Positions 1 to 16,139 of a stretch of DNA of 64,000 nucleotides are shown one piece after another. The position numbers and the translations under genes are program-made. Positions within the stretch are counted from its first letter, which is position 1, and each line of letters begins with the position of its first letter. Source of the stretch: Escherichia phage vB_EcoM_IME392. The notes beneath the pieces were generated by a model, which saw only the letters and a list, made by a program, of their open reading frames with translations, was not told the DNA's origin and ran no database searches. The stretch lies in the sequence record MH719082.1, one strand, 5' to 3'.

Positions 1-931
1 TCACATCCAGAGTTGATCCTGGTTGGAACTCTCGACCAACATCTTCCATTACGTATTCTAGAATACTGTGATCGCTATTATAACGAGAAGCAGCATCTTC
101 AAGAGTAGCGATGTAATGCTGGAAGTAGGTACGGATCTTATACCAGGAATTAAGTGATCCGAGATCAATCGTAGTTACCGGAGCTTCATTAATGTCGTCA
201 ACATAAGCTCGGATATTACTTACCTGCTTCTTGATGTTCGACACTTCCGGATACCAGTGGAGATCATCCGTCATCACCACATAGTTGCCCATATCTACTT
301 TGAGCATAGTTGCGATGATTTCCTGGATGATCGTGAACTCCACCAGATTAACGTTAGTCAATCCCCAGATTAGATCATTACTACGGTTGAATACCGTGCA
401 GTCCAGACCACCATTACGGTACTTAAACGATAGAGCAATGTTGCAGATCATATCTGCGGTATTGATGCTGCCGATGCTGTTTACCAAACCTACATCAGAA
501 TCACGGCTGGGATCGTGAATAGTAGCCACGCACTTACGGTTACCCAGGTCAGAACGGAGGCGGTCTGTTACAGTCTGGAGTTGATCGTAGTTATACAGAC
601 GCTCACCGTAAGCACCACGCCAGGTAACCATATCATCGCTAAACATCTTAGCGCGAGGAACCATAATCGACATCCAGTTATCGATTGCATAGCCACCAGA
701 CAGTACCCACAATACTTCCCCCATAATTCCGAGGATATTGTCTTTACGTTCTGGATGAGCCATCCAACGATTAATCGGATTACTTAACTCAACTACAGCA
801 TGACCGATGGATACTACCGCCGAAGAGTTAACAGAAGTTCTGGACTTCTGCAACTCACCAGCCTTATCCATAGTATTGATGCTGTTAACCAGGATTTCAG
901 TATTACTGTTACCGCGAATTACCGAGATCAT
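1..931 (-). CDS. Thymidylate-synthase-superfamily enzyme, probable deoxypyrimidylate hydroxymethylase (C-terminus lies beyond window edge)
   Basis: Not in the ORF track because there is no stop in the window. My translation of the minus strand from ATG 931-929 stays open for 310 codons (MISVIRGNSNTEILV...). TS-fold motifs: WRGAYGERLY, NRKCVATIHDPSRD, Cys segment ADMICNIALSFKY (Cys codon 445-443), RSNDLIWGLTNVN, TDDLHWY. The start overlaps the kinase stop as ATGA (928-931). Confidence 0.75.
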   Translation of the reverse strand, partial: MISVIRGNSNTEILVNSINTMDKAGELQKSRTSVNSSAVVSIGHAVVELSNPINRWMAHPERKDNILGIMGEVLWVLSGGYAIDNWMSIMVPRAKMFSDDMVTWRGAYGERLYNYDQLQTVTDRLRSDLGNRKCVATIHDPSRDSDVGLVNSIGSINTADMICNIALSFKYRNGGLDCTVFNRSNDLIWGLTNVNLVEFTIIQEIIATMLKVDMGNYVVMTDDLHWYPEVSNIKKQVSNIRAYVDDINEAPVTTIDLGSLNSWYKIRTYFQHYIATLEDAASRYNSDHSILEYVMEDVGREFQPGSTLDV

Positions 932-1650
932 TTAGAGTCCTTACGCACTGAATCAATAGACTTAACTGCAGAGGACAGTAACTCCAGACGGGCCTCCTGA
1001 GGGATCATACCAGATGGCTCATTCAGGATCATAATACCTTTACCAGTATTAGTAAAACGAGCTGTGATTGATCCAGGATACACCGGATGATTCAGAGTTA
1101 CAGAATTACACAACGCAGCACCGAATCGCTCCTCGTAGGCACGCATAGTTACCTTAAGGAGAGTAGAACTGACTGCTACAGAGTATTCCGGATCAACAAC
1201 ACGGAAGTTATTGTCCTCAATACTCTTATCCTTCGTATTGAAGAACAGAGTCATGTTATAATAATCAATAGACTCGTTACTGAGACGTAATGCCTCATCA
1301 CGAGCTTCCTGGCTAGCAAACATACTGTTATGCAGCAGGAAGTAAACGTACGAATCGAATACCGCACGATCACTGACGATCAACTCGCCACGATTGTAGG
1401 CATCCTTGAACATCTGAGTTCGCTGACGAATAAGACGCAGCTGGAACTCTACCGCTTCCATAGGATCTTCCACAGCTAAGCGCAGAATATCCATATGGGA
1501 TGTTACTCCCAGAGGAAGATGGTCACGAGTCTGTACTGCACGGAAGGTACATTCGGTTGATTCTTCCCAGCCTTTAGCCAGAGTAGATTTACCGGTACCC
1601 TGCGCACCAGACATAATTACACTGTAGCCTGGGATACTATAGTCTCTCAT
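928..1650 (-). CDS. P-loop kinase of deoxynucleoside/dNMP-kinase type (candidate hm-dNMP kinase or 5-hmdU DNA kinase)
   Basis: Walker A SGAQGTGKSTLAKG. IVSDRAVFDSYVYF resembles the ERS..D..F motif of dNK/TMPK-type kinases. I prefer ATG at 1650 (GGAGAGAATA-ATG) over the TTG at 1662 used by the track. Confidence 0.6.
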   Translation of the reverse strand: MRDYSIPGYSVIMSGAQGTGKSTLAKGWEESTECTFRAVQTRDHLPLGVTSHMDILRLAVEDPMEAVEFQLRLIRQRTQMFKDAYNRGELIVSDRAVFDSYVYFLLHNSMFASQEARDEALRLSNESIDYYNMTLFFNTKDKSIEDNNFRVVDPEYSVAVSSTLLKVTMRAYEERFGAALCNSVTLNHPVYPGSITARFTNTGKGIMILNEPSGMIPQEARLELLSSAVKSIDSVRKDSK

Positions 1651-1682
1651 TATTCTCTCCAATTAAGAATCTTTCCCACATT

Positions 1683-1713
1683 TTAACAGCCTTTCAAGAC
1701 CCTAAAAGAGCGG
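1683..1713 (-). promoter_or_regulatory. Conserved early/middle promoter-like motif, copy 1 of 15
   Basis: Minus strand reads CCGCTCTTTTAGGGTCTTGAAAGGCTGTTAA followed by AAT (TGTTAAAAT, an extended -10-like element). It lies about 30 nt upstream of the kinase ATG. Confidence 0.6.
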
Positions 1714-1739
1714 ACTAAAAAGGCTGGTGTAAATGTGAA

Positions 1740-2711
1740 CTAGCTAAACTTATACCAGCGAGGTCTCATACGGATCTCGTGATTCAGTTTATGTAGTTTC
1801 GAGAATTCGCAGAATGAGTTGGTGAACATCTGACGAGTATAGAACCGCTCATCCTCCGGCATGAAGTGGAACCATTTCTCCGGCTCCCATGCATACCCGA
1901 AATGAGCACATATCTCTTTGATGTTCTGATACCACCATTCCACGAACATCTGGTAGCCGCAAGGAGGGTTCTGGTCATTAAGCATGTACCATACCCCATC
2001 CTGCGTCCCGGGTCCACATACGATAGCATCGTTATCTGTGTACGCAGTCTCTTTAGAGTAGGACATAGTTGCCCAGCATTGATATGCCATGAACGGACCT
2101 AATCCAGATACCTGTAACAGATGCTCGATGGCCTCGGTAGCGAACGGAGACTTCCATGCCAGTAAGATAGGATCACTGTAGGTCTTCACCAGATAGGCTC
2201 TGGCAGCTACACTGTACTTAATATCCTCTGGACATACTTCATTAGCCATCTTAACTGCTGTGCTAAGGAAGTAGGCATTTGATTGCTGTGGAGCAGTGAA
2301 CGGAGGACCATCCTCATAACGACGTAGCTCTTCACGACCCATGTTATGTATGTCGTCATAGCTCATCTCATAAAGAGGAAGGACTCTGCGGAAGCGATCC
2401 ATATATGAATCACCACGGTTTATCATCTGGAAGAGTACCACGTTAAGCGCCTTACTCTCCCAGCTTAGGGAATCGTTCTCCAGAATGTTCTTGATAGCCC
2501 ATACTGTTTCACGATCGTGCTTACGGAACACGTTAGTGAATTTAAACTTACTAATCCACTTATGTTCTGTCCACGGAGGAGGTAGCTTAAGTATCTCCTT
2601 CTTATAATAAACCTCAGTCCGCTCGCGGTTATACTCCACATACTCACGTAGCTCCTCGGGATTTATCATCCCGAGTAACCCGTCGAAGTGCAAACCTAAC
2701 GGTTTAGACAT
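1740..2711 (-). CDS. Conserved 323-aa protein; tentative aGPT-Pplase-like (alpha-glutamyl/putrescinyl thymine pyrophosphorylase family) DNA hypermodification enzyme
   Basis: Clean ORF with a TAATG overlap to the upstream gene (2709-2713). The segment PPPWTEHKWISKFKFTNVFRKHDRETVW matches what I recall of aGPT-Pplase-type proteins (memory only). It sits between a DNA-glucosyltransferase-like gene and a P-loop kinase plus TS-like pair. Confidence 0.4.
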   Translation of the reverse strand: MSKPLGLHFDGLLGMINPEELREYVEYNRERTEVYYKKEILKLPPPWTEHKWISKFKFTNVFRKHDRETVWAIKNILENDSLSWESKALNVVLFQMINRGDSYMDRFRRVLPLYEMSYDDIHNMGREELRRYEDGPPFTAPQQSNAYFLSTAVKMANEVCPEDIKYSVAARAYLVKTYSDPILLAWKSPFATEAIEHLLQVSGLGPFMAYQCWATMSYSKETAYTDNDAIVCGPGTQDGVWYMLNDQNPPCGYQMFVEWWYQNIKEICAHFGYAWEPEKWFHFMPEDERFYTRQMFTNSFCEFSKLHKLNHEIRMRPRWYKFS

Positions 2712-3790
2712 TAAAGAATACCTTCTTTGGTAAAGTAGTCTATTACTTCATCCTGAAGTTCTTGTGCGTAATCCTTGCGCAGATATAGATTCTCATACTG
2801 ATGTTTCAGCAGAGCATCACGATCTTTCAGTTTCTCTGCAATCTCCGCATTACTGGAGACGATCAGAGGAGCCAGTAGCTCTTCGGGGACGCCGCTCCGG
2901 ATTATTGTTCCAGCAGCATCTTTATCCACCAGCATCAGAGTACCAGAGCTCAGGTATTCGTAATAACGGTTAGGTGGGCTGGTATAGAACGAATTACTGG
3001 AGTTCCAGTCTTCGATAAGCAGTACCGCTGCATATTTAGCCACTTCATCCAGCATCTCTGACAGCTTAAACTTAGGCAGCCAGTTAATCGGAGCAGCAGG
3101 TCCCAGCCACTTACGTTCTTTAGGATCCAGCTCTTCCCAGTTTTCCTGCTCGTAGCCGTCAAATCCTGCAAGACCACCAGTATGTTTAGCGATGGACATC
3201 TGAGCTTTGTAGCTCGGCACCGACATAAACAGTTCCAGACCATCTTGCTGGGAGAAGTACTGAGTGAACTTATGGAAGCGGCCTTCACGAGCAGCACCGT
3301 AATACAGCAGGCTATTGTCCGGCTTATCTGACGATCCATAGCGAGGCTTACGACCAGGAACGTAGGTAAGACGGTTCCAGTTAATGTGATGATAGTTCTC
3401 TTCGCTAGGAGAATACTGATTACCCCAGGAAGTACGTTCAAATGCTGCTACAACTTTAAATACAGTAGCTGCGGTGATGTGTCTCCACTGCGGACCCTGG
3501 ATACGCATCTTAGACGAGTAATCCTGTCCAATCCAGTAGAACTTAGCTCCGACATCTGCCTGGTCTACCCAGAACTTATACATCTCGTCGCGGAACTTAC
3601 AGAAGGTAGGAACACCATTGATGGCGATAATCACGTCATATTTAGTGCCATCTTCCATAGCCTTAACGAACTTAGGAGTATCGTCCAACAGGTCAGCTTG
3701 AAGTCCGTAGGCTAACCAGGAAGCCAGAGTATTACTGGCAATGATGGATTTATCGCTGCATGGCGAAAAGTTAGTTACTGCAATCTTCAT
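2711..3790 (-). CDS. T4 beta-glucosyltransferase-like DNA glycosyltransferase (GT-B, GT63-like)
   Basis: 359 aa versus 351 aa for T4 BGT. Colinear matches to my recollection of T4 BGT: MKIAVTNFS / MKIAIINMG; YDVIIAINGVPTF / YDRLIVVNSSINF; LLYYGAAREGRFHKF / DVIYGGSFRSGQRESK; AAVLLIEDWNSSNSF...TLMLVDKD / IAALIIGDKNYNDNF...AVMLIDEE. Confidence 0.6.
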   Translation of the reverse strand: MKIAVTNFSPCSDKSIIASNTLASWLAYGLQADLLDDTPKFVKAMEDGTKYDVIIAINGVPTFCKFRDEMYKFWVDQADVGAKFYWIGQDYSSKMRIQGPQWRHITAATVFKVVAAFERTSWGNQYSPSEENYHHINWNRLTYVPGRKPRYGSSDKPDNSLLYYGAAREGRFHKFTQYFSQQDGLELFMSVPSYKAQMSIAKHTGGLAGFDGYEQENWEELDPKERKWLGPAAPINWLPKFKLSEMLDEVAKYAAVLLIEDWNSSNSFYTSPPNRYYEYLSSGTLMLVDKDAAGTIIRSGVPEELLAPLIVSSNAEIAEKLKDRDALLKHQYENLYLRKDYAQELQDEVIDYFTKEGIL

Positions 3791-3818: not shown

Positions 3819-3849
3819 TTAACAGCCTTTTAGCTCATCAAAGAAGCGA
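3819..3849 (-). promoter_or_regulatory. Conserved promoter-like motif, copy 2
   Basis: Minus strand reads TCGCTTCTTTGATGAGCTAAAAGGCTGTTAA followed by ATT. The upstream half overlaps the stop of the GT2 gene. It lies about 25 nt before ATG 3790. Confidence 0.55.
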
Positions 3850-4872
3850 GTTAGCTGATGCCCAGCTCAGCCAGTTATCGTTGAGATCGGTCAGGTAGGA
3901 GTAATCCTTATTCAGACCGAATACAGTACGGTTAGTTCCGTCGAACTTCATTATACCAGCGCCAGGAGCTCTGATGATTGCATCTTCCGTAGCCAGACAA
4001 TATTCTTTCAAGTATTCCTGGATGTTGGGACGAATACGACGGAAGGAACTATCTGCCGAGTCATAGTGGAACATATCTGCGCAGTGCCACTGTACGTAGG
4101 ATTTATCCGGACGGCTGAGTAGTTCATTACGGGTAACCATATCTTTAGGAGAATATCCCAGCTTAGCTACAGTGACTTCGTGAATACCTCCACCATTAGA
4201 CGAAGTATCCATCAGCCAGTTTTCGTCCCAGTAGAACGAAGTACCAGTACCAGTTACCTGTCCAACCTTCCAGCCCATCGCCATACCTTTAAACAACAGG
4301 TAGCAATCTTCTCCTACGGTCAACTGTTGGAAGGTTATATCGAACAGCCAGAACATCTTCTCACTGGTCTTGACCATGATACCGAGGTCAGTGGCCGGAG
4401 CAGTGTTATTATGTGACTGACGATCGCATAGTTCAACAATCTTGTAGTTACGATTCTTGAAGCTACGGACGAACGCCATCTCAAACTCAGATCCCTCGAA
4501 GTCTATAACGGAACGGTCCAGATGGAAAATATTATCTGCGAACCAGACATCATCATCCACGAAGTAGCAGATGTCTGGACACCAGTTCTGATCCTCCATT
4601 AAAATCCATGCCTTATCAAGAGCATGAGCTCGGATTCTTCCGATTACCGGATTATCGTACTTAGGACGATGCCAGAAATTAAACTGCTCGTCCCCACCGA
4701 ACTGCTCTTCCAGAACTGCCTTATCTTCTTCGGAGGCATCCTGCATAAAGTAGAAGAAACGATACTCGATAGAGTCGTCAGTCTTCTTAGCATCTTTGAA
4801 CGACTGAATCTGACGGAGTACCGACTTCATACGATGATAGGTTGGGATGATAAAAGCCACTTTGGTAGTCAT
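3838..4872 (-). CDS. Family-2-type (GT-A) glycosyltransferase
   Basis: N-terminal VAFIIPTYHRMKSV (the GT2 signature IPTYNR-like) and a DXD-like YFVDDDVWF. Only 6 nt separate it from the upstream deacetylase gene. Confidence 0.7.
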   Translation of the reverse strand: MTTKVAFIIPTYHRMKSVLRQIQSFKDAKKTDDSIEYRFFYFMQDASEEDKAVLEEQFGGDEQFNFWHRPKYDNPVIGRIRAHALDKAWILMEDQNWCPDICYFVDDDVWFADNIFHLDRSVIDFEGSEFEMAFVRSFKNRNYKIVELCDRQSHNNTAPATDLGIMVKTSEKMFWLFDITFQQLTVGEDCYLLFKGMAMGWKVGQVTGTGTSFYWDENWLMDTSSNGGGIHEVTVAKLGYSPKDMVTRNELLSRPDKSYVQWHCADMFHYDSADSSFRRIRPNIQEYLKEYCLATEDAIIRAPGAGIMKFDGTNRTVFGLNKDYSYLTDLNDNWLSWASANSLL

Positions 4873-5588: not shown

Positions 5589-6959
5589 AGTTTCCTTAGC
5601 CAAGAATACTTTAGGTACAAAGATCTTGAGGAACCCGAATAGAATACACAATACCCCAATCAGTACCGGAACAGCCGATACAGCTACCAGAGTCTTCGTT
5701 ACAGTTACTACGTCACCACCTGCCCAGTTAAGTGCAGCAGCAACTACACCCATGCTTACAATCCAGAATACACGAGTTCTAGGAGCGGTCATGGACTCTA
5801 CCGTAATACCTGCTGAGTCATGACCTGTAATAAAGAACAGAATCACAGACACGAGGGTAATTACTGAGAATATCCATCCGCCTGGGAAATTAGCCAGAAG
5901 CTGGAAGATATCCTGAGCACCATGTTGCAAACCGGCTACACCGAATACGGTAAACCATACGTTACTGATAATGGTAGGGAACAGTACACATCCCAGGATC
6001 AGTTCGCGAATAGTACGGCCGTAAGAGATACGTGCCACAAACGCTCCGACGAATAATGCCCAACCTACCCAGGCTGCATAGTAAGCATAAGGCCAGCTAG
6101 CCAGCCATTGCTTCTCTTCAGCAGTACTGCCAATGTTTACCGACATAGGAATAATCTGGAGCAGATAGCTGCCAGAATAGGTGATGGTCTTCCAGAGGTA
6201 TTCAAAGAATGTACCACTTACAGCAACGAATGCCATAATAGATAGAGCTACGATTACATTATATCTGGATAACCACTTAACCCCACGATCGACACCAGTT
6301 ACGGCACTAAGTACAGTGCCCAGAGTCAGGAGTGCGATAATGGTGTAAGGACCAACATCCACACCAAGGAACTCTTTAAATCCAGAACTGATCGGGCCTA
6401 CTGCGTAGACGAACGACAGGGTTAAGCCTATGATGGTCGAGAAGAGTAAGCTTATCGTATTAAGGTTATTCAGAGTTCGGGACTTGAATAACTGATTAAG
6501 CGGACGGTCTTCACCACGTACATGCAGTAAGTACCCGAATGCCACCCCTACGACTGCATACACAGCCCATGCATTAAGTCCCCAGTCAAAGAAGGTAGTT
6601 ACCATATTCTGACGTTCGGACATACCCTCCTGATGATGGTACATAGGTTCGAGTACGCCATAATAAATCATGGATACACCCATACCGGTACTAAACATCA
6701 TAGAGTAATAGGTAAAGCGATTGTATTTCGGAGTACCTTTACCCAGCTTAATGTTACCATGTTTGCTGAATACAAAGAATGCCAGGAACGCCAGGAAGAT
6801 CAGCGAAGACCAGGTAAATATGAATCCATACTGAGATATAAATACAGACTTACTCCAGTCCATTACAGCACCAAACTGGGTGGGAGCAAACATAATGGCG
6901 AGTACAATACCCACCGTTACCAGCACCGTCCCCCAGGTAACTACCTTTGAATCGGACAT
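5577..6959 (-). CDS. BCCT-family (betaine/carnitine/choline-type) secondary transporter
   Basis: 460 aa, hydrophobic throughout with about 11-12 predicted helices by eye. FSKHGNIKLGKGTPKYNRFTYYSMMFSTGMGVSMIYYGVLEP matches the BCCT N-terminal block (RLG...F..SWFAMLFAAGMGIGL.FWGVAEP). WPYAYYAAWVGWALFVGAFVARISYGRTIRE matches the BCCT signature W.....W..W.PFVG.FIARIS.GRTIRE. Confidence 0.75.
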   Translation of the reverse strand: MSDSKVVTWGTVLVTVGIVLAIMFAPTQFGAVMDWSKSVFISQYGFIFTWSSLIFLAFLAFFVFSKHGNIKLGKGTPKYNRFTYYSMMFSTGMGVSMIYYGVLEPMYHHQEGMSERQNMVTTFFDWGLNAWAVYAVVGVAFGYLLHVRGEDRPLNQLFKSRTLNNLNTISLLFSTIIGLTLSFVYAVGPISSGFKEFLGVDVGPYTIIALLTLGTVLSAVTGVDRGVKWLSRYNVIVALSIMAFVAVSGTFFEYLWKTITYSGSYLLQIIPMSVNIGSTAEEKQWLASWPYAYYAAWVGWALFVGAFVARISYGRTIRELILGCVLFPTIISNVWFTVFGVAGLQHGAQDIFQLLANFPGGWIFSVITLVSVILFFITGHDSAGITVESMTAPRTRVFWIVSMGVVAAALNWAGGDVVTVTKTLVAVSAVPVLIGVLCILFGFLKIFVPKVFLAKETPPV

Positions 6960-6962
6960 TGA

Positions 6963-7871
6963 TTATTCCTCAATTACGCCCTTAGCGATTAACTGGCGAC
7001 GGACGTATGCGTAGCCAGCAGGTGAAGTAGCGAGGACGATGTCCGCACTACGGAAGTTGGTTTCGATATAGAAGCACTCCTGAAGATCCCGAGTACAGAA
7101 GAGCTCAGTACTCATCATACCCTCGCGTACGTTACATGCATCTGCAACGAATTGCGCAACATCTTCGAAGTGGTCTACCGAATGACTATAGCCGAATCCA
7201 CGGGCATCAGTAGATATAACGTAGTTAGGGCAGTACGGAGTGAAGTCAGTATCTTCGTAGGATTTACCCTGGATAGTGAAGATATCTGCATAGTCCTTGA
7301 ACCCGCTCGGGCTAACCAGAAGATCCCAGGCAACTACCATACCATCGATAACATCTGCCTGAAGTACCAGAGAGGTAGTATATTCGTCCGGTGCCTTATC
7401 GCAGACCAAAATTGGGGAGTCTCCCAGAAGGTCCGACATAGTGCCCGCACCCTTGCCCCCGTGAACACGATCACGGCGTACAAACGCCTCCTGAGGCCTC
7501 TGGTACAGTCTGAACGACGGTACAATCAGCGAATCAGGCAGAGTTCCCAGGTTAGCTTCGGAGCGAAGGCAGGATAATTGGTCAGCTTTAGACCACGTAC
7601 TTTCGATAGCGTGCAGATCGTTACCGATTTTGGTATAGATATAGCTTTCCGGATTACGGCACTTACCCTGATTCAACTCTTCGATAACCGAGTCGAAATA
7701 AGGAAGTCGTACTGATCCCTCACGAGGAGCAGTTAACGCTACTGAGCCATGCTTGGTATGATCCTGATCAACTACCATAACCTGGTCCAGACTTACACCC
7801 ATCTTAAGAATCTGGGATAATGTAGCTGCCGTGTGATTAGTGCAGCCAATCATCAAATCTAACTTCTTCAT
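6963..7871 (-). CDS. ATP-grasp-like ligase (tentative)
   Basis: 302 aa. Glycine-rich RRDRVHGGKGAGT and C-terminal FYIETNFRSAD (the E-x-N metal-binding motif of ATP-grasp enzymes). A 3-nt gap to the transporter gene implies co-transcription. Confidence 0.4.
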   Translation of the reverse strand: MKKLDLMIGCTNHTAATLSQILKMGVSLDQVMVVDQDHTKHGSVALTAPREGSVRLPYFDSVIEELNQGKCRNPESYIYTKIGNDLHAIESTWSKADQLSCLRSEANLGTLPDSLIVPSFRLYQRPQEAFVRRDRVHGGKGAGTMSDLLGDSPILVCDKAPDEYTTSLVLQADVIDGMVVAWDLLVSPSGFKDYADIFTIQGKSYEDTDFTPYCPNYVISTDARGFGYSHSVDHFEDVAQFVADACNVREGMMSTELFCTRDLQECFYIETNFRSADIVLATSPAGYAYVRRQLIAKGVIEE

Positions 7872-7899
7872 TTTAATTCCTCAGTTAACTTGTACAACC

Positions 7900-7930
7900 T
7901 AACAGCCTTTCGAACCCTAAAAAGAGCGAA
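7900..7930 (-). promoter_or_regulatory. Conserved promoter-like motif, copy 4 (variant CTAACAG)
   Basis: Minus strand reads TCGCTCTTTTTAGGGTTCGAAAGGCTGTTAG followed by GTT. It lies about 28 nt upstream of ATG 7871. Confidence 0.5.
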
Positions 7931-7965
7931 ATAATAGATATCTAGCCATCTCGTAAGATGGCTAT
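7931..7965 (-). terminator. Terminator-like hairpin after the methyltransferase gene
   Basis: 9-bp stem tagccatct / agatggcta (7944-7952 / 7957-7965) with a 4-nt loop. The minus-strand downstream tract is T-rich but interrupted (GATATCTATTATTT). Confidence 0.45.
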
Positions 7966-7972
7966 GTATATA

Positions 7973-8713
7973 TTACTTTAATTCGGAGAGATCTGCGATC
8001 TTCACCTTAGCTGATACATCCCAGATTCCTTCACCAAATCCGGTATCTTCCAGCAGCTTAGGCACTTCACGTTTCTGTACCTTAGATTGCTCGTACTTAA
8101 GCAGAGGAATATTACCGGTCTTATCTGATTGATCCCACAGATAAGTAGCAGCACCGATGTTATCGAACAGTGCGAGATCTGGATTAAACTGGGTAAGGAG
8201 TCGGCAGTCCCAGTGAGACTTATGTTCCTCGAAAGGATTAGTTTCCGTGCCACGCTGACGATACTCATAGTTAGGAGTACCGATCACGATTTTAGCCTTA
8301 GACTGGAATAGCTTAGACAACACCATAAGCCCGTCTTCGCTATCCAGATGCTCCAACACATCCAGCCAGATAATAGTGCCGAATTTATCCAGCTCTTCAA
8401 TAGGAAGATCTTTCAACAGTTCAACGATATTGCAGATATAGATATCGCTATATACATTTACACTGCCTTTGATGTAGTCTTCGCAGATGTCCAGACCTGT
8501 AATCTGACCATCGAATCCTGCGTTACGGAGAGCAAGACCAATTTCTCCACGACCTAATCCCATATCCAGGATTGGCCCGGAGATAATTTCGTTACGGAGC
8601 ATCCATTGGAGAAAGTGCTTCTGGACTAAGTAGGAGGTGCCTCCGTTGCCCAGTGAAGCCTTCGTGACCTTAGTACCAGGAACGAAATTACACTCGATAT
8701 GTTTACCAAACAT
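7973..8713 (-). CDS. Class I SAM-dependent methyltransferase
   Basis: Motif I ILDMGLGRGEIG, GLDICEDY, and the IIWLDVLEHL block typical of Methyltransf_11/23-type enzymes. Confidence 0.75.
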   Translation of the reverse strand: MFGKHIECNFVPGTKVTKASLGNGGTSYLVQKHFLQWMLRNEIISGPILDMGLGRGEIGLALRNAGFDGQITGLDICEDYIKGSVNVYSDIYICNIVELLKDLPIEELDKFGTIIWLDVLEHLDSEDGLMVLSKLFQSKAKIVIGTPNYEYRQRGTETNPFEEHKSHWDCRLLTQFNPDLALFDNIGAATYLWDQSDKTGNIPLLKYEQSKVQKREVPKLLEDTGFGEGIWDVSAKVKIADLSELK

Positions 8714-8739
8714 GTTCTGTCCTCATTAGTTTCGACACC

Positions 8740-8770
8740 TTAACAGCCTTTGGAGCCGTAAAAGAAGTGG
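8740..8770 (-). promoter_or_regulatory. Conserved promoter-like motif, copy 5
   Basis: Minus strand reads CCACTTCTTTTACGGCTCCAAAGGCTGTTAA followed by GGT. It sits between the 8785-8812 terminator and ATG 8713. Confidence 0.6.
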
Positions 8771-8784
8771 TATTGTACATATTC

Positions 8785-8812
8785 AAAAATTAGGGTGGCC
8801 GAAGCCACCCTA
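8785..8812 (-). terminator. Rho-independent terminator (UUCG loop)
   Basis: Stem tagggtggc / gccacccta (8791-8799 / 8804-8812). The loop cgaa is UUCG on the minus strand. A T5 run follows on the minus strand (plus-strand aaaaa 8785-8789). Confidence 0.75.
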
Positions 8813-8817
8813 GTTAG

Positions 8818-10065
8818 TTACAGTTTACCGATCATCTTCTGAATCATCTCGTCAGAAGTCTGATTCTCTACCTTAGCACGACGTTCTTGCAGATTAGCAA
8901 TGCGGTCGTCGTGATCTTTCTTACGTAGCATGCTGATGCTACGGCTAAGGCAGGAATTCAACACTTCCTGGGTAATACCGAGAGCTTTGATGATCTGAGC
9001 ATCAGACTTATCCTGCATAACCAGCTCGCCCACTTTAGGAAGAATCTGGTAAATCTCGATGTCTCGGTCAATCTTCTTAAGAGACTCAGTCTTATGGACG
9101 GAGAATGCCTGATTGTAGAGAGCCATCGTGACTGCAATCCAGTCGCGAATACCCATCGTCACCAGTTGACCATTGTAGGCTACCTGGATACGATGCGAGC
9201 GGTTCATGTAAGCAATATTCATGCATGCTTCGTGAACCTCGTCCATATCGATGGTCCTGATACGGGGAGCCTTCATTACTCGGATATAGATCTTATCCTT
9301 GGACATGTTCTTGACCAGGATCTTACCTTCTGATAACCACTTATTCAGGAACCCGATGCGAGGAGTAATTACCTCACCAGACCCGATGATGTCGATGGTG
9401 TCGGTATTGACGCGAGTTACCTTAAGGGTAAGGCCTAAGCGACCTACACCAGTTTCCCATAAGGACTTAAGGTCTGACTTACTCGGCACGATATCATACC
9501 CGTACTGAGCCTTAAGCAGATTATAATCGTCATGCTTGTAGGCTTCCAGCAGACTCTCGTAAGTGAATGCTGGGATACGGGACTGAATACCAGTAGCCCA
9601 TGAGAAGGTACCATACATCAGAGCATACGGAATAGGCACTGGAAGGTATGCGTATTCCATCTTCTCTTCACCTTCAACCTGCGGAACATAGTCCGCTAGA
9701 CCGAAGTAGTATTCTGCACGATCTTCGTTCAGGCCAACCTTCGTGTAACGAGGAGCAGCACCAGGAACTTCTTCCAGCAACTTAACGCCGAAAGATCCCT
9801 GACCATCAATAGCACCGATGCGAGCAAGACGGGAAATAGTCCCATCGATAGACTGGTCACCGAATGGGTGTAGCGACTGAGTTTCTGAGATAGCGCTCAG
9901 AGTCCCCACCAGCTTCCCACGAGCAATGCTATTCAGAGCCATGTAGATACGGCGCTGGGCAGGAATCAGGCCATCGATACCGGGAACTACACGATGAAGA
10001 GCACAATACACACTGTAGTCAGTGTAGTTCTTGGTGATGAATTCAGAAATCTTTACCTGTTCCAT
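8818..10065 (-). CDS. DNA topoisomerase II, DNA-cleavage subunit (T4 gp52-like / GyrA N-terminal-like)
   Basis: DGLIPAQRRIYMAL (GyrA/ParC motif DGLKPVQRR) and AAPRYTKVGL (active-site Tyr context). Adjacent to the ATPase/Toprim subunit. Confidence 0.85.
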   Translation of the reverse strand: MEQVKISEFITKNYTDYSVYCALHRVVPGIDGLIPAQRRIYMALNSIARGKLVGTLSAISETQSLHPFGDQSIDGTISRLARIGAIDGQGSFGVKLLEEVPGAAPRYTKVGLNEDRAEYYFGLADYVPQVEGEEKMEYAYLPVPIPYALMYGTFSWATGIQSRIPAFTYESLLEAYKHDDYNLLKAQYGYDIVPSKSDLKSLWETGVGRLGLTLKVTRVNTDTIDIIGSGEVITPRIGFLNKWLSEGKILVKNMSKDKIYIRVMKAPRIRTIDMDEVHEACMNIAYMNRSHRIQVAYNGQLVTMGIRDWIAVTMALYNQAFSVHKTESLKKIDRDIEIYQILPKVGELVMQDKSDAQIIKALGITQEVLNSCLSRSISMLRKKDHDDRIANLQERRAKVENQTSDEMIQKMIGKL

Positions 10066-13226: not shown

Positions 13227-13345
13227 ATAATAATCCCAAATTAGAAGATCCGCAGCGGGAACGCCCCGCCACCCAAAAGAACGGGCTTTAGGAGGTCCCA
13301 TAAATCGTTTTATTTTTCATTATTTGAAAAATAAAATAATCTACA

Positions 13346-13370
13346 CAAAAATGGGGTCCGAAGACCCCAT
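13346..13370 (-). terminator. Rho-independent terminator (UUCG loop)
   Basis: Stem atggggtc / gaccccat (13351-13358 / 13363-13370), loop cgaa, then a T5 run on the minus strand. It lies 4 nt after the stop of the Mre11-Rad50 gene. Confidence 0.75.
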
Positions 13371-13373
13371 CAA

Positions 13374-16139
13374 CTACTCTTCCATAAACGTAGTTACGTT
13401 ATTGGAAAGGTAGGCACCAATTTTAGTGTTATATCTCTGGAAGGTAGGAACATGGGTAACCAGGATGATGTGGTTAACCGGAATGTCCTGAAGAGCATCA
13501 ATAGCTACGTCCAGAGTATTTACGTCCAGATTTCGCAGAGACTCATCCAGAATCAGACATCCTGCTCCCTTACTGAGGCTAATCAGCTTACCGATGAACA
13601 GTACGTCCACCAGGTTCTGTTGGCCACCAGACAGATCAGCATACGGAATTAACAGATCTCCAACTTTGTATTGAACATCGAAGTCAATCTTGATAGCTCC
13701 GTTAGCCTGTTCACGAACAGTAGAAATTACCATATCTCCACCAGTCATCATAGCAGCTACTTCTTTGAAGATAGAAGCAGTTACATCGCCGCTATTAGTG
13801 AACAGGCTCTGATACTCAACCAGTTTCTGATACTTAGGCTGGAGAATAGCCAACTGCGCATTAGCATCGTCGAGTTTCTTCTGAGCCTCGTCCATACGAG
13901 TCTTCAGACTACGAAGAGTAGCCATAGCGCCGATGGTAGAGTTGATCTCGATTAGCTCCTGCTCCAGCTTAGCCACTTCCTCTTCGAGAACCTGCACGGA
14001 AGGATAGGACTTAGTCTTACTCTTAAGCACTTCCACGTCGCTATTAACGGTATGGATCTTCTGACGAAGAGTAGCCACATCGTTCAGCAGACCGGACTTA
14101 CGTCTTAGTTCGGCTAATTCACTATTCTTAACGTTAAGCTTCTCTCTGAGTTCATCAGACTTAGGAGCCTTACTGATCTCAGCCTCGACAGCATCCAGCT
14201 TAGTAACAGATGCAGATCCTTGGGTTTCGAGATCATCCATCTTAGCTCTGATAGACTTCTCTACTTCTTTAATGTCCTCTTCCTTAAGGGACTGCTTACA
14301 GGTTGGGCACGTAGTAGGGATGTTGCGCATCTCGGTCTCGAGCTTAGTTAACTCCTTCTCTAAGCGAGTTAACTCATTAGTCAGAGATTCACTCTGATTA
14401 TGCAGTGACCGGATGTTACCTTCTACTTCAGATACCTCGGCATCCAGAGTAGTGATTTCGTCCCGGACCTTAGCGAGAGCGGAGTTAACCTCCTCTTCGT
14501 TAAAGTCAATCTTGAACGCAGCCAGAGAATCTTCCAGCATCTGGAGACTCTGTAGCTTACTGTCCAGATTACCCAGCTCACGGATCTTCTGACGAATATC
14601 ATCAATCTGTGGCAGGATTCGAGACTTATCTTCTTCCAGATTACTCACGTCCTTAAGTTTGGAGAAGTCGTGATCCTCCATGGTCTTAAGGACTTCTTCC
14701 TGAGCAGTTACCTGGGTCTGATAGTTACTGATCTCTACCTTACAGTTCTTAGCCGAGGCCTTTGCGACAGCTTCGTACTGGTTAATTACGGTAAGACCGA
14801 GCATCTTCGTGATCAGGTTAATACGTTCGTTGAATCCGAACTGGCTCAAGAACGGAGGACTATTCTGGGAACGATACAGAAGATCGAAGTGTTCGAGGAA
14901 TGGCAACATCTCCCAGAGCTTAGCTTCACGCTCTCGGATACTACCACCATCCATCTCATCACCATCAATCCAGACTCGGAAAGTCTGACCACCAGCCCAA
15001 TGGCGACTGATCAGGAATTCACGACCACCATACTCTAGCATCACTTCTACCAGAAGATGGTCTTGACCGCGTCTCACCACGTTACGAGGACTGTCGCTAC
15101 CAGTTAAGCAGTAGTTAAGAGCTCTCAGCAACGAGGATTTACCGTTACCAGTTTCGCCGTAGAGATAAGTAAGACCTCGCTTAAAGTTAAGCTCCAGCTT
15201 ATCAATACTGCGGAAGTTCTCTACCTTAATACTATTCAAGGTAAAGTTAAGGTCGAAGACCGACTCGGAACGATCAACGTGGGTAGACATCTCATCATGG
15301 ATATCTTTAAGACCCTTTGCCCGAACGACTTTGTCGATTACTTCTTCAACATCGATAGATTTAACTGAGATGCGTGAAGCATCCATCATCTGAGCTCTTT
15401 CACGAACTACCAGATGAGGGTAATTATCCATACCGGCAGGTACTTCATCTTCCCAGTACATCTTGAGGTATTTGTAGGAGTCAGACTCTACCGGAACCCG
15501 CTGCCAGGAAAGATCTTTAAGATCCAGCAGCACCAAGCTACCGTCCTGACAGTCACCCATCCCGTGAGGAATAGGTACGTTAACCGAGTGGGTATGACCG
15601 ATGCTGATAGGACGATGGATGTCACCAGCAAATCCCAGCTCATACTTAGTATCGTCGAACTCCTGACCAAACATAGAGGACAGAGTAATGTGGCCAATAA
15701 GGACATCTACTTTATCTTCGATAAAACTGAAGTCCTGGGTAGGACGCCAGTCGCTAAAGGCGACCTTACGGCCACCTAAGTTCAGGATTTTACCATCGAC
15801 ATATTCTGCCTTACCAGCGAGGATCGGCACCAGTGAGTTCTGGTAGTGATCAGCATCTACTGATTTGGAGTTAATGTCGTGGTTACCCAGAATATAATAA
15901 ATCTCGGTAAACTGCTCACCGAGGATCTCCATAAACTGGGATGTAGCGTGTGCAATTTTAGGCTCATGCTGAGCCTTATGCACTAAGTCGCCAGCGATAG
16001 ACAGACAGGTTACTTTATGTTCCCTGCCCATCTCCGCCATACGATGAGCTAAACCGATAAACTGCTTTAAGCGAAACCCTTCCGAGTTATGCTGCTGAAA
16101 TTCATGGATATGAATATCAGCTACGATCAACATTTTCAT
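13374..16139 (-). CDS. Fused Mre11/SbcD-like nuclease + Rad50/SbcC-like ATPase (T4 gp47+gp46 equivalents in one 921-aa chain)
   Basis: N-terminus has phosphoesterase motifs ADIHIH, AGDLVHK, LGNHD, GHITL, GDIHRP, GHTH. From about aa 300: Walker A YGETGNGKSSLL, long coiled coil, zinc hook CPTCKQ, signature LSGGQQ, Walker B CLILDE. Confidence 0.85.
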   Translation of the reverse strand: MKMLIVADIHIHEFQQHNSEGFRLKQFIGLAHRMAEMGREHKVTCLSIAGDLVHKAQHEPKIAHATSQFMEILGEQFTEIYYILGNHDINSKSVDADHYQNSLVPILAGKAEYVDGKILNLGGRKVAFSDWRPTQDFSFIEDKVDVLIGHITLSSMFGQEFDDTKYELGFAGDIHRPISIGHTHSVNVPIPHGMGDCQDGSLVLLDLKDLSWQRVPVESDSYKYLKMYWEDEVPAGMDNYPHLVVRERAQMMDASRISVKSIDVEEVIDKVVRAKGLKDIHDEMSTHVDRSESVFDLNFTLNSIKVENFRSIDKLELNFKRGLTYLYGETGNGKSSLLRALNYCLTGSDSPRNVVRRGQDHLLVEVMLEYGGREFLISRHWAGGQTFRVWIDGDEMDGGSIREREAKLWEMLPFLEHFDLLYRSQNSPPFLSQFGFNERINLITKMLGLTVINQYEAVAKASAKNCKVEISNYQTQVTAQEEVLKTMEDHDFSKLKDVSNLEEDKSRILPQIDDIRQKIRELGNLDSKLQSLQMLEDSLAAFKIDFNEEEVNSALAKVRDEITTLDAEVSEVEGNIRSLHNQSESLTNELTRLEKELTKLETEMRNIPTTCPTCKQSLKEEDIKEVEKSIRAKMDDLETQGSASVTKLDAVEAEISKAPKSDELREKLNVKNSELAELRRKSGLLNDVATLRQKIHTVNSDVEVLKSKTKSYPSVQVLEEEVAKLEQELIEINSTIGAMATLRSLKTRMDEAQKKLDDANAQLAILQPKYQKLVEYQSLFTNSGDVTASIFKEVAAMMTGGDMVISTVREQANGAIKIDFDVQYKVGDLLIPYADLSGGQQNLVDVLFIGKLISLSKGAGCLILDESLRNLDVNTLDVAIDALQDIPVNHIILVTHVPTFQRYNTKIGAYLSNNVTTFMEE

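Follow-up and report, generated by a model that had tools for sequence, protein, structure and literature searches.

Two neighboring minus-strand genes near the start of a 64,000-nucleotide stretch of Escherichia phage vB_EcoM_IME392 (sequence record MH719082.1; this whole stretch is called the window below) raise the question of whether they encode a kinase and transferase pair acting on DNA or enzymes of separate steps. The original prediction was the former: a P-loop kinase that phosphorylates 5-hydroxymethyldeoxyuridine (5-hmdU) in DNA, and a 323-aa helical protein of the aGPT-Pplase type that displaces the phosphate with an amino acid or amine. On balance, we lean toward a composite reading, in which one minus-strand operon supplies 5-hmdU and then decorates it, in two stages rather than through a kinase/transferase pair. 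Both predicted open reading frames (ORFs) are present on the minus strand and are far beyond chance expectation, given the match of the 323-aa protein to the Pfam family PF18723 and its many relatives, and the conservation of kinase homologs down to 30% identity. In its first 8 kb, the window shares 93.3% identity with Escherichia phage EP_H11 (OP688485.1, 111 kb), the sole close relative among 50,697 phage records, a collection that does not include IME392 itself. The argument turns on the following features.

2..931, minus strand: thymidylate synthase (TS) homolog, truncated at the edge of the window; candidate dUMP hydroxymethylase making 5-hmdUMP
928..1650, minus strand: P-loop kinase of 240 aa, starting at ATG 1650; Pfam AAA_28; new small family
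1651..1739, minus strand: intergenic gap of 89 nt that parts the PF18723 gene from the kinase gene and holds the kinase ribosome-binding site GGAGAG
1740..2711, minus strand: stand-alone PF18723 protein of 323 aa; helix-hairpin-helix (HhH), glycosylase-like fold; invariant Cys301

The 323-aa protein matches PF18723 with an E value of 3.2e-35 (122.3 bits; gathering cutoff, 25) over model positions 5-277 of 281, and has no other Pfam match even at E≤10. It holds the segment FKFTNVFRKHDRETVW, which corresponds to the PF18723 motif KFTNVxRxxD; the assignment of this segment to aGPT-Pplase-type enzymes was correct at the family level, the match to PF18723 (clade 1) being solid. The current Pfam name of the family is "HMUDK_hel, 5-hmdU DNA kinase, helical domain." PF18723 equals the annotators' aGPT-Pplase clade 1, since an Ackermannviridae protein so annotated matches PF18723 only (1e-76); M6 gp55 also matches PF18723 only (8e-56). 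The window protein aligns to the ViI-gp160-type protein of CAU_YEP3 ("aGPT-Pplase clade 1") at about 1e-32 to 5.5e-32 and to M6 gp55 at 1e-5. At E≤1e-3, the family comprises 4952 cluster representatives, and the best 150 relatives are nearly all stand-alone proteins of 300-350 aa. The window protein likewise is not fused to a kinase of PF18748, the family of kinases acting on 5-hmdU in DNA (5-HMUDKs), and the kinase that adjoins it is not a PF18748 member. Across 13 sequences reaching down to 20% identity, the invariant columns are R31, P46, T48, F58, T59, N60, R63, D66, A146, Q211, G233, G235, N298, C301, E302, and K305, and the family motifs PWT, KFTNVxRxxD, NAY, GxGxFxAYQ, CGPG, and NxxCEFSK are all conserved in the window protein. 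A tblastn search started from a remote PF18723 member brought in nothing beyond the Ackermannviridae, Yuavirus, and Microbacterium phage matches already known. NCBIfam gave no match for either the 323-aa protein or the kinase, and searches of PDB chains with both proteins and their profiles returned only designed proteins or P-loop matches.

Phosphate displacement has been proven for a different family, the amino-acid:DNA transferases (AADTs; PF18724), which include M6 gp51, ViI gp247, and PaMx11 gp46. M6 gp51, a proven glycine:DNA transferase, was assigned to PF18724 ("ADDT") with an E value of 1.4e-46, and in the same library the window protein had no PF18724 match even at E≤10. Local hhalign of 62 PF18723 against 17 AADT sequences aligned 200 columns (probability, 77%; E value, 2e-5), placing GLGPFMAYQ on GFGPWIGFK and C301 of the window protein (NSFCEFSK) on Cys247 of M6 gp51 (ETVLCKWK). 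For PaMx11 gp46, a gp51 homolog, attack on the pyrimidine C6 has been proposed for its cysteine of the same number, Cys247 (PMC11472151), and the catalytic cysteine of the 15599 enzyme has been confirmed by mutation (PMC13458397). Furthermore, the PF18723 protein shows the two-helix-bundle HhH fold of PaMx11 gp46. When the family alignments were compared with the single sequences of M6 gp51, Escherichia coli Tmk, and M6 gp54, the hhalign matches were confined to the HhH motif or the P-loop. On the strength of the AADT homology and the invariant Cys301 aligned with the AADT cysteine, the 323-aa protein looks like an active enzyme of the AADT superfamily; judged by its sequence, it is outside the clade with shown phosphate displacement. 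The predicted Pplase-type enzyme therefore holds as regards the family and fails as regards the phosphate-displacing clade, PF18724, to which the window protein has no match.

The kinase carries the Walker A motif GAQGTGKS and the segment SDRAVFDSY, as had been predicted. Its mechanically called ORF (928..1662) opens at TTG 1662 and would encode 244 aa; ATG 1650, which has GGAGAG four bases ahead and is the start in the homologs and in the EP_H11 annotation, gives 240 aa and is likely the true start. The family motifs are G.QGTGK(S/T), FQ...R, and SDR.V.DS..Y...HNSMF; the FQ and DR..DS motifs resemble two motifs of deoxynucleoside kinases (dNK) and thymidylate kinases (TMPK), the FQ pair that binds the base and DR(Y/H)/ERS. 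AAA_28 was the only significant Pfam match (2e-9; 38.2 bits against a cutoff of 27), with dNK (15.8 bits) and Thymidylate_kin (14.8 bits) below the threshold of 27, and the best PHROG was "thymidylate kinase" (1e-11). The predicted fold groups with NadR-RNK and with the deoxynucleoside and thymidylate kinases, with an additional C-terminal beta subdomain of ~60 aa that typical dNK/TMPK proteins do not have. The family pI ranges from 5.3 to 7.0 (acidic to neutral), compared with 8.7 for M6 gp54. The kinase is the only small Walker A kinase in the window and the rest of EP_H11, and tblastn of the phage collection found homologs only in EP_H11, Ab1-TPeters, and RP13.

Similarity to the 5-HMUDKs ended at the P-loop. 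Neither the window kinase nor four of its homologs matched PF18748 at E≤10; M6 gp54, the proven kinase (7.7e-18), and a fusion protein of locus L042 (1.6e-17) were the positives. Starting from M6 gp54, a 5-HMUDK profile was iterated over related loci totaling ~1.3 Mb; it gathered 22 sequences and never recruited the window kinase, and hhalign of the window kinase family with this 22-sequence alignment covered 26 columns, in the P-loop only. The kinase also had no match at E≤10 to the T4 gp1-type DNMK family (PF21448). The grouping with T4 gp1 that the original prediction had named as telling against itself is thus literally absent, but a kinase of free nucleotides is still the better reading.

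Genomic context is the evidence that decides most on the role of the kinase. We compared 10 kinase lineages (window/EP_H11, the Logan contigs L004 and L005, L009, Acinetobacter phage Ab1-TPeters, Ralstonia phage RP13, and L093, L094, L095, and L096). A TS-like gene lies within a few genes of the kinase in 8 of the 10, with the kinase immediately upstream of it in 6, and a YfbR-like HD gene is close to the kinase in 8; deaminases, a helicase, and PolA are also adjacent. PF18723 adjoins the kinase in only three lineages, window/EP_H11, L004, and L005, which share the order 359-aa gene, PF18723, kinase, TS, and YfbR-like HD. In L009, a homolog of the 359-aa gene is followed directly by kinase-TS, and the contig has no PF18723 gene. 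Ab1-TPeters has the order kinase-TS-HD, and a profile search of its complete genome found no PF18723, AADT, or 5-HMUDK. In RP13, HD-kinase lies beside helicase and PolA, with PF18723 18 kb off; in L093 to L096, the kinase is found among TS-like, YfbR-like HD, dCTP or dCMP deaminase, helicase, and PolA genes, without PF18723. Inteins split the PolA or helicase genes of L093 (16697-18905), L094 (10514-14920), and L095 (11616-14483). The conserved partners are enzymes for the production and control of the 5-hmdU nucleotide pool, and they match the classical gene set of phages with 5-hydroxymethyluracil (hmU), namely dUMP hydroxymethylase, dTMPase, and a deoxynucleoside monophosphate (dNMP) kinase for 5-hmdUMP (PMC8989533). 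Given these neighbors, the NadR/dNK/TMPK-like fold, and the lack of PF18748 similarity beyond the P-loop, the kinase is most likely a phage 5-hmdUMP kinase that acts on the free nucleotide, and the claim that it phosphorylates 5-hmdU in DNA is not sustained.

The surroundings of PF18723 were examined from the other side in 80 IMG/VR loci centered on this family (L010-L089; Ab1-TPeters was numbered L090). A window-type kinase was found within 8 kb of PF18723 in none of them. A PF18748-type kinase was present within that distance in 16, the same 16 that have an AADT, and 64 of the 80 have neither; a TET-associated-glycosyltransferase-like gene stands beside PF18723 in 15. As a description, the Pfam name ("helical domain of the kinase") fails for most PF18723 members. 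The closest IMG/VR relatives of the window protein, at 34-36% identity, come from L011, L012, and L043, where the order at about 5778-8975 is AADT, a 356-aa PF18748-type kinase, and PF18723. An AADT profile search of the window, EP_H11, and Ab1-TPeters found none (best E value, 0.77), and it seems that the AADT and the PF18748 kinase were either lost from EP_H11-like phages or never present in them.

Gene coupling at the locus runs in the series TAATG (359-aa gene to PF18723), 89-nt gap, ATGA (kinase to TS). The TGA stop of the kinase gene (930-928) and the ATG of the TS-like gene (931-929) share ATGA, a 4-nt overlap that bears out the predicted translational coupling and recurs in L004, L005, and L009. 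The original prediction did not contain the other part of the pattern: the PF18723 gene and the 359-aa gene upstream of it are translationally coupled, the start of the former and the stop of the latter overlapping in TAATG, and 89 nt part the PF18723 gene from the kinase. A comparable gap of 72-75 nt separates the PF18723 and kinase genes in L004 and L005. The possibility that the operon is split within the 89-nt gap by a promoter or terminator was rejected, as the gap (1651..1739) contains no promoter- or terminator-like site; the closest upstream minus-strand terminator-like hairpin is at 5541-5515.

From the family memberships, folds, conserved cysteine, gene coupling, and synteny observed here, we infer every substrate and reaction of the proposed pathway. 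In the first, prereplicative stage, the TS-like enzyme would make 5-hmdUMP, and the TS-coupled kinase would turn it into the diphosphate (5-hmdUDP), from which host NDP kinase would make the triphosphate. Enzymes encoded downstream, namely the HD/YfbR-like nucleotidase, the dUTPase, and the dCTP deaminase, all given for EP_H11 in PMC12686479, would shape the nucleotide pool, and the phage PolA would put 5-hmdU into DNA. In the second, postreplicative stage, the PF18723 enzyme may flip the modified uracil out of the helix, where attack of Cys301 on C6 would make the 5-methylene carbon reactive toward substitution. A glycan would then be built on the product by the GT-B-like and GT-A-like proteins and the PIG-L deacetylase encoded upstream. 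The two-stage reading fits membership in the SP15/RP13-like phages, as thymidines with a linker plus sugars are reported in related phages: EP_H11 is given as a member of this group, whose characterized members carry thymidines with a linker, phosphate, and sugars (PMC12686479).

Several points weigh against this reading. On the side of PF18723, the chemistry proposed here would be an extrapolation from PF18724, and we know of no PF18723 member with a demonstrated activity or assay. Neither an AADT nor a canonical 5-HMUDK could be detected in the window or EP_H11; the PF18723 enzyme would then need either unphosphorylated 5-hmdU or the product of another kinase, and hydroxide is a poor leaving group. 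On the side of the kinase, the 5-HMUDKs likewise give weak dNK/TMPK Pfam matches, and the fold, in a comparison that included no 5-HMUDK structure, is also compatible with a DNA substrate. Ab1-TPeters encodes a second AAA_28 protein and a weak match to the T4-type DNMK, so the TS-coupled kinase is not the sole dNMP kinase candidate there. Finally, PF18723 is fused to or beside true 5-HMUDKs in SP10 gp186, L042, and L011, L012, and L043; because of this linkage elsewhere, the adjoining window kinase could be a nonorthologous substitute for a 5-HMUDK.

This last point leads to an unlikely alternative, in which the AAA_28-type kinase is a nonorthologous 5-hmdU DNA kinase that makes 5-phosphomethyldeoxyuridine (5-PmdU), and PF18723 displaces the phosphate with a nucleophile that is later glycosylated. 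The two genes are neighbors in the window, L004, and L005 and both occur in RP13, the genome has no other small kinase, the fusions and adjacencies just named join PF18723 to true 5-HMUDKs, and PF18723 keeps the catalytic cysteine of the phosphate-displacing AADTs. A preprint also reports no 5-HMUDK in RP13, EP_H11, and IME392 (10.1101/2025.03.26.645540). We give equally little credence to the corollary that the "missing" DNA-level 5-hmdU kinase of RP13/EP_H11-like phages is the AAA_28 kinase coupled to TS, with PF18723 as the transferase that installs the linker for the glycosyltransferases. However, the kinase occurs without PF18723 in the complete genome of Ab1-TPeters, in L093-L096, and in L009, and it is near PF18723 in 0 of the 80 IMG/VR loci; the two RP13 genes are 18 kb apart; and the kinase is coupled to the TS gene and not to PF18723. 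True 5-HMUDKs, to which its similarity ends at the P-loop, pair with an AADT in 16 of 16 of those loci, and an AADT is absent here. In a more radical variant, PF18723 would activate unphosphorylated 5-hmdU directly through its cysteine, which would explain the 80% of PF18723 loci without a kinase nearby.

It is less probable still that PF18723 is not a group transferase and instead serves as a DNA-binding or base-flipping accessory, or as an orphan enzyme that converts activated 5-hmdU to thymine. Such a conversion is known from PhiW-14, SP10, M6, and ViI, all of which have a PF18723 paralog, and these four hypermodifying phages have both Pplase clades; the route from 5-hmdU to thymidine was stated to be unknown (PMC5889632). 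An accessory role is implied by the Pfam name, and the SP10 gp186 kinase domain is active on its own. In M6 lysate reactions lacking the PF18723 paralog gp55, the glycinyl product was still formed, and the authors regarded it as unsettled whether either of the ViI Pplases, the PF18723 member being gp160, is essential (PMC8989533). Against this, the Cys, Asp, and HhH motifs that are invariant across very divergent members argue for catalysis, the 64 of 80 loci without a kinase or AADT within 8 kb imply that a role tied to 5-PmdU is not general, and no reductant-binding domain was evident in a Pfam search of the 323-aa protein. Least probable, in our assessment, is that the kinase phosphorylates a side chain, linker, or sugar hydroxyl of the hypermodified base and so gives the phosphate of SP-15, YerA41, and Carin-5. 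Linker-phosphate-sugar thymidines do occur in related phages (PMC12686479), the kinase shares one transcription unit with glycosyltransferase-like genes, no terminator lying between, and its C-terminal beta subdomain is unlike typical dNK/TMPK proteins; nevertheless, the genes conserved beside it encode pool enzymes, not glycosyltransferases, and its tblastn homologs did not extend beyond EP_H11, Ab1-TPeters, and RP13, in a collection in which the presence of YerA41, SP-15, and Carin-5 was not confirmed.

Returning to the two-stage operon, its remaining genes lie upstream of PF18723.

2711..3790, minus strand: 359-aa protein, probable GT-B-type glycosyltransferase (weak Glyco_trans_1_2 match, 0.023)
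3838..4872, minus strand: 344-aa protein with GT-A-like motifs IIPTYHR and VDDDVW read from the translation; homologs in L004, L005, and L009
4879..5490, minus strand: PIG-L family de-N-acetylase (PF02585, 6.7e-14), kept in L004, L005, and L009
5577..6959, minus strand: BCCT-family (betaine/choline/carnitine) transporter (PF02028, 1e-92), inside the modification cluster
Between the BCCT gene and the methyltransferase-like gene, minus strand: 302-aa ORF
7973..8713, minus strand: methyltransferase-like gene, the most upstream of the listed cluster

From upstream to downstream, the minus-strand order is therefore methyltransferase-like, 302-aa ORF, BCCT, PIG-L, 344-aa, 359-aa, 323-aa, kinase, and TS homolog. 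Strong terminator-like hairpins on the coding (minus) strand, with 9- to 11-bp stems and T tails, bound sub-units of the cluster at 5541-5515, 7964-7943, and 8812-8791; terminator-like sites number 15 in 9 kb, where 4.8 are expected. At the downstream end, the TS-like protein (Pfam Thymidylat_synt, 3e-12; PHROG 3676, 1e-70) has M6 gp58 as a homolog, and its EP_H11 ortholog, WBU87640.1, is given as a TS homolog for 5-hmdUMP synthesis (PMC12686479); it is a candidate dUMP hydroxymethylase.

The 359-aa protein has no family match beyond the weak GT-B signal and carries the motifs GQDY, INWN, LLYYGA.R, L.IED, and PNR.YE.LS.G. It was the best, nonsignificant match of M6 gp51 in the genome and was considered as a hidden AADT; this was rejected, as hhalign found no relation and the motifs are GT-B-like. 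Homologs adjoin PF18723 in L004, L005, L066, and L067 and adjoin the kinase in L009; in the distant contigs L066 and L067 (7033-7950), the homolog is again directly upstream of PF18723. The 344-aa protein matched no Pfam, PHROG, or NCBIfam profile, and its motifs make it a probable glycosyltransferase. In Ab1-TPeters, where the regions of note are 13327-15593 and 35525-36663 of L090 and the kinase-TS-HD module is present, two GT4 glycosyltransferases directly follow topoisomerase II genes, like the position of the modification cluster in the window. All NCBIfam BCCT models scored below their cutoffs for the transporter, a gene also found in L005 (5760-7142); a quaternary-amine or related donor may be imported through it for DNA modification. 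In L042, an unrelated IMG/VR contig, a BCCT gene (8619-10004) lies 3 kb from the PF18723::PF18748 fusion. An extra upstream module is present in L004 (2409-6364), L005 (877-4781), and L009 (383-3909), composed of genes for a protein resembling pyruvoyl-type phosphatidylserine decarboxylases, an ATP-grasp protein, a CxxCxxCC protein, and a paralog of the 344-aa protein. In the window, it is replaced by the methyltransferase-like gene (7973-8713), which suggests that the tailoring chemistry differs between close relatives.

That EP_H11 has a clade-1 Pplase gene and no 5-HMUDK was already noted in the 2025 preprint (10.1101/2025.03.26.645540). What is new here is the recognition of a kinase family beside PF18723, with evidence tying it to the nucleotide pool; the retention by PF18723 of the AADT catalytic cysteine; and the finding, at odds with the present Pfam name, that PF18723 usually has no kinase in its vicinity. 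Setting the kinase apart from the DNA-level pathway corrects an attractive, probably wrong annotation; it also delimits a new kinase family, small in size and linked to the supply of hydroxymethyl-dUMP in SP15/RP13-like phages. PF18723 is large and found in every characterized thymidine-hypermodifying phage, yet it is not known to have an assigned activity. Here, it occurs without the usual confounding kinase and transferase and is coupled to glycosyltransferase-like genes, and since the phage infects E. coli, its function is directly testable in an easy host. Were the DNA-kinase reading true, clade-1 "Pplases" would have their first assigned function, and nucleobase kinases would have arisen a second time, independently.

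Among known systems, the window protein shares its full-length Pfam family and motifs with M6 gp55 (also 323 aa), ViI gp160, the C-terminal domain of SP10 gp186, and RP13 g120, all likewise from phages with a TS-like hydroxymethylase, at identities of only 22-32%. Unlike these relatives, it is a stand-alone protein coupled to a GT-B-like gene in a genome without PF18724 or PF18748. The AADTs (PaMx11 gp46/PUGT, M6 gp51, ViI gp247, PhiW-14 gp109, and SH-Ab 15599 DADT) stand at 7% identity to the window PF18723 protein and have a PF18748 kinase alongside in 16 of 16 loci, whereas the window genome has no such kinase. Like the 5-HMUDKs (M6 gp54, ViI gp67/gp243, PhiW-14 gp37, and the N-terminal part of SP10 gp186), the window kinase is a small P-loop kinase near PF18723 and TS-like genes; it differs from M6 gp54 in being longer (240 versus 187 aa), acidic rather than basic, and endowed with the DR...DS..Y and FQ motifs, which M6 gp54 lacks. 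Compared with the dNMP kinases (SP8/SP10-type 5-hmdUMP kinase and T4 gp1) and with TMPK, dNK, and NadR-RNK, it scores below the dNK and Thymidylate_kin thresholds, has no T4-type DNMK match, and carries the extra C-terminal beta subdomain. The system is also close to the SP15/RP13-like phages (SP-15, YerA41, Carin-5, RP13, EP_H11, and IME392), the group with oligosaccharide-hypermodified thymidine. Within it, a PF18723 gene is mentioned for RP13, EP_H11, and IME392 only (10.1101/2025.03.26.645540), and with EP_H11, the window shares the same set of TS-like, dCTP deaminase, and dUTPase genes together with the glycosyltransferase/deacetylase gene block.

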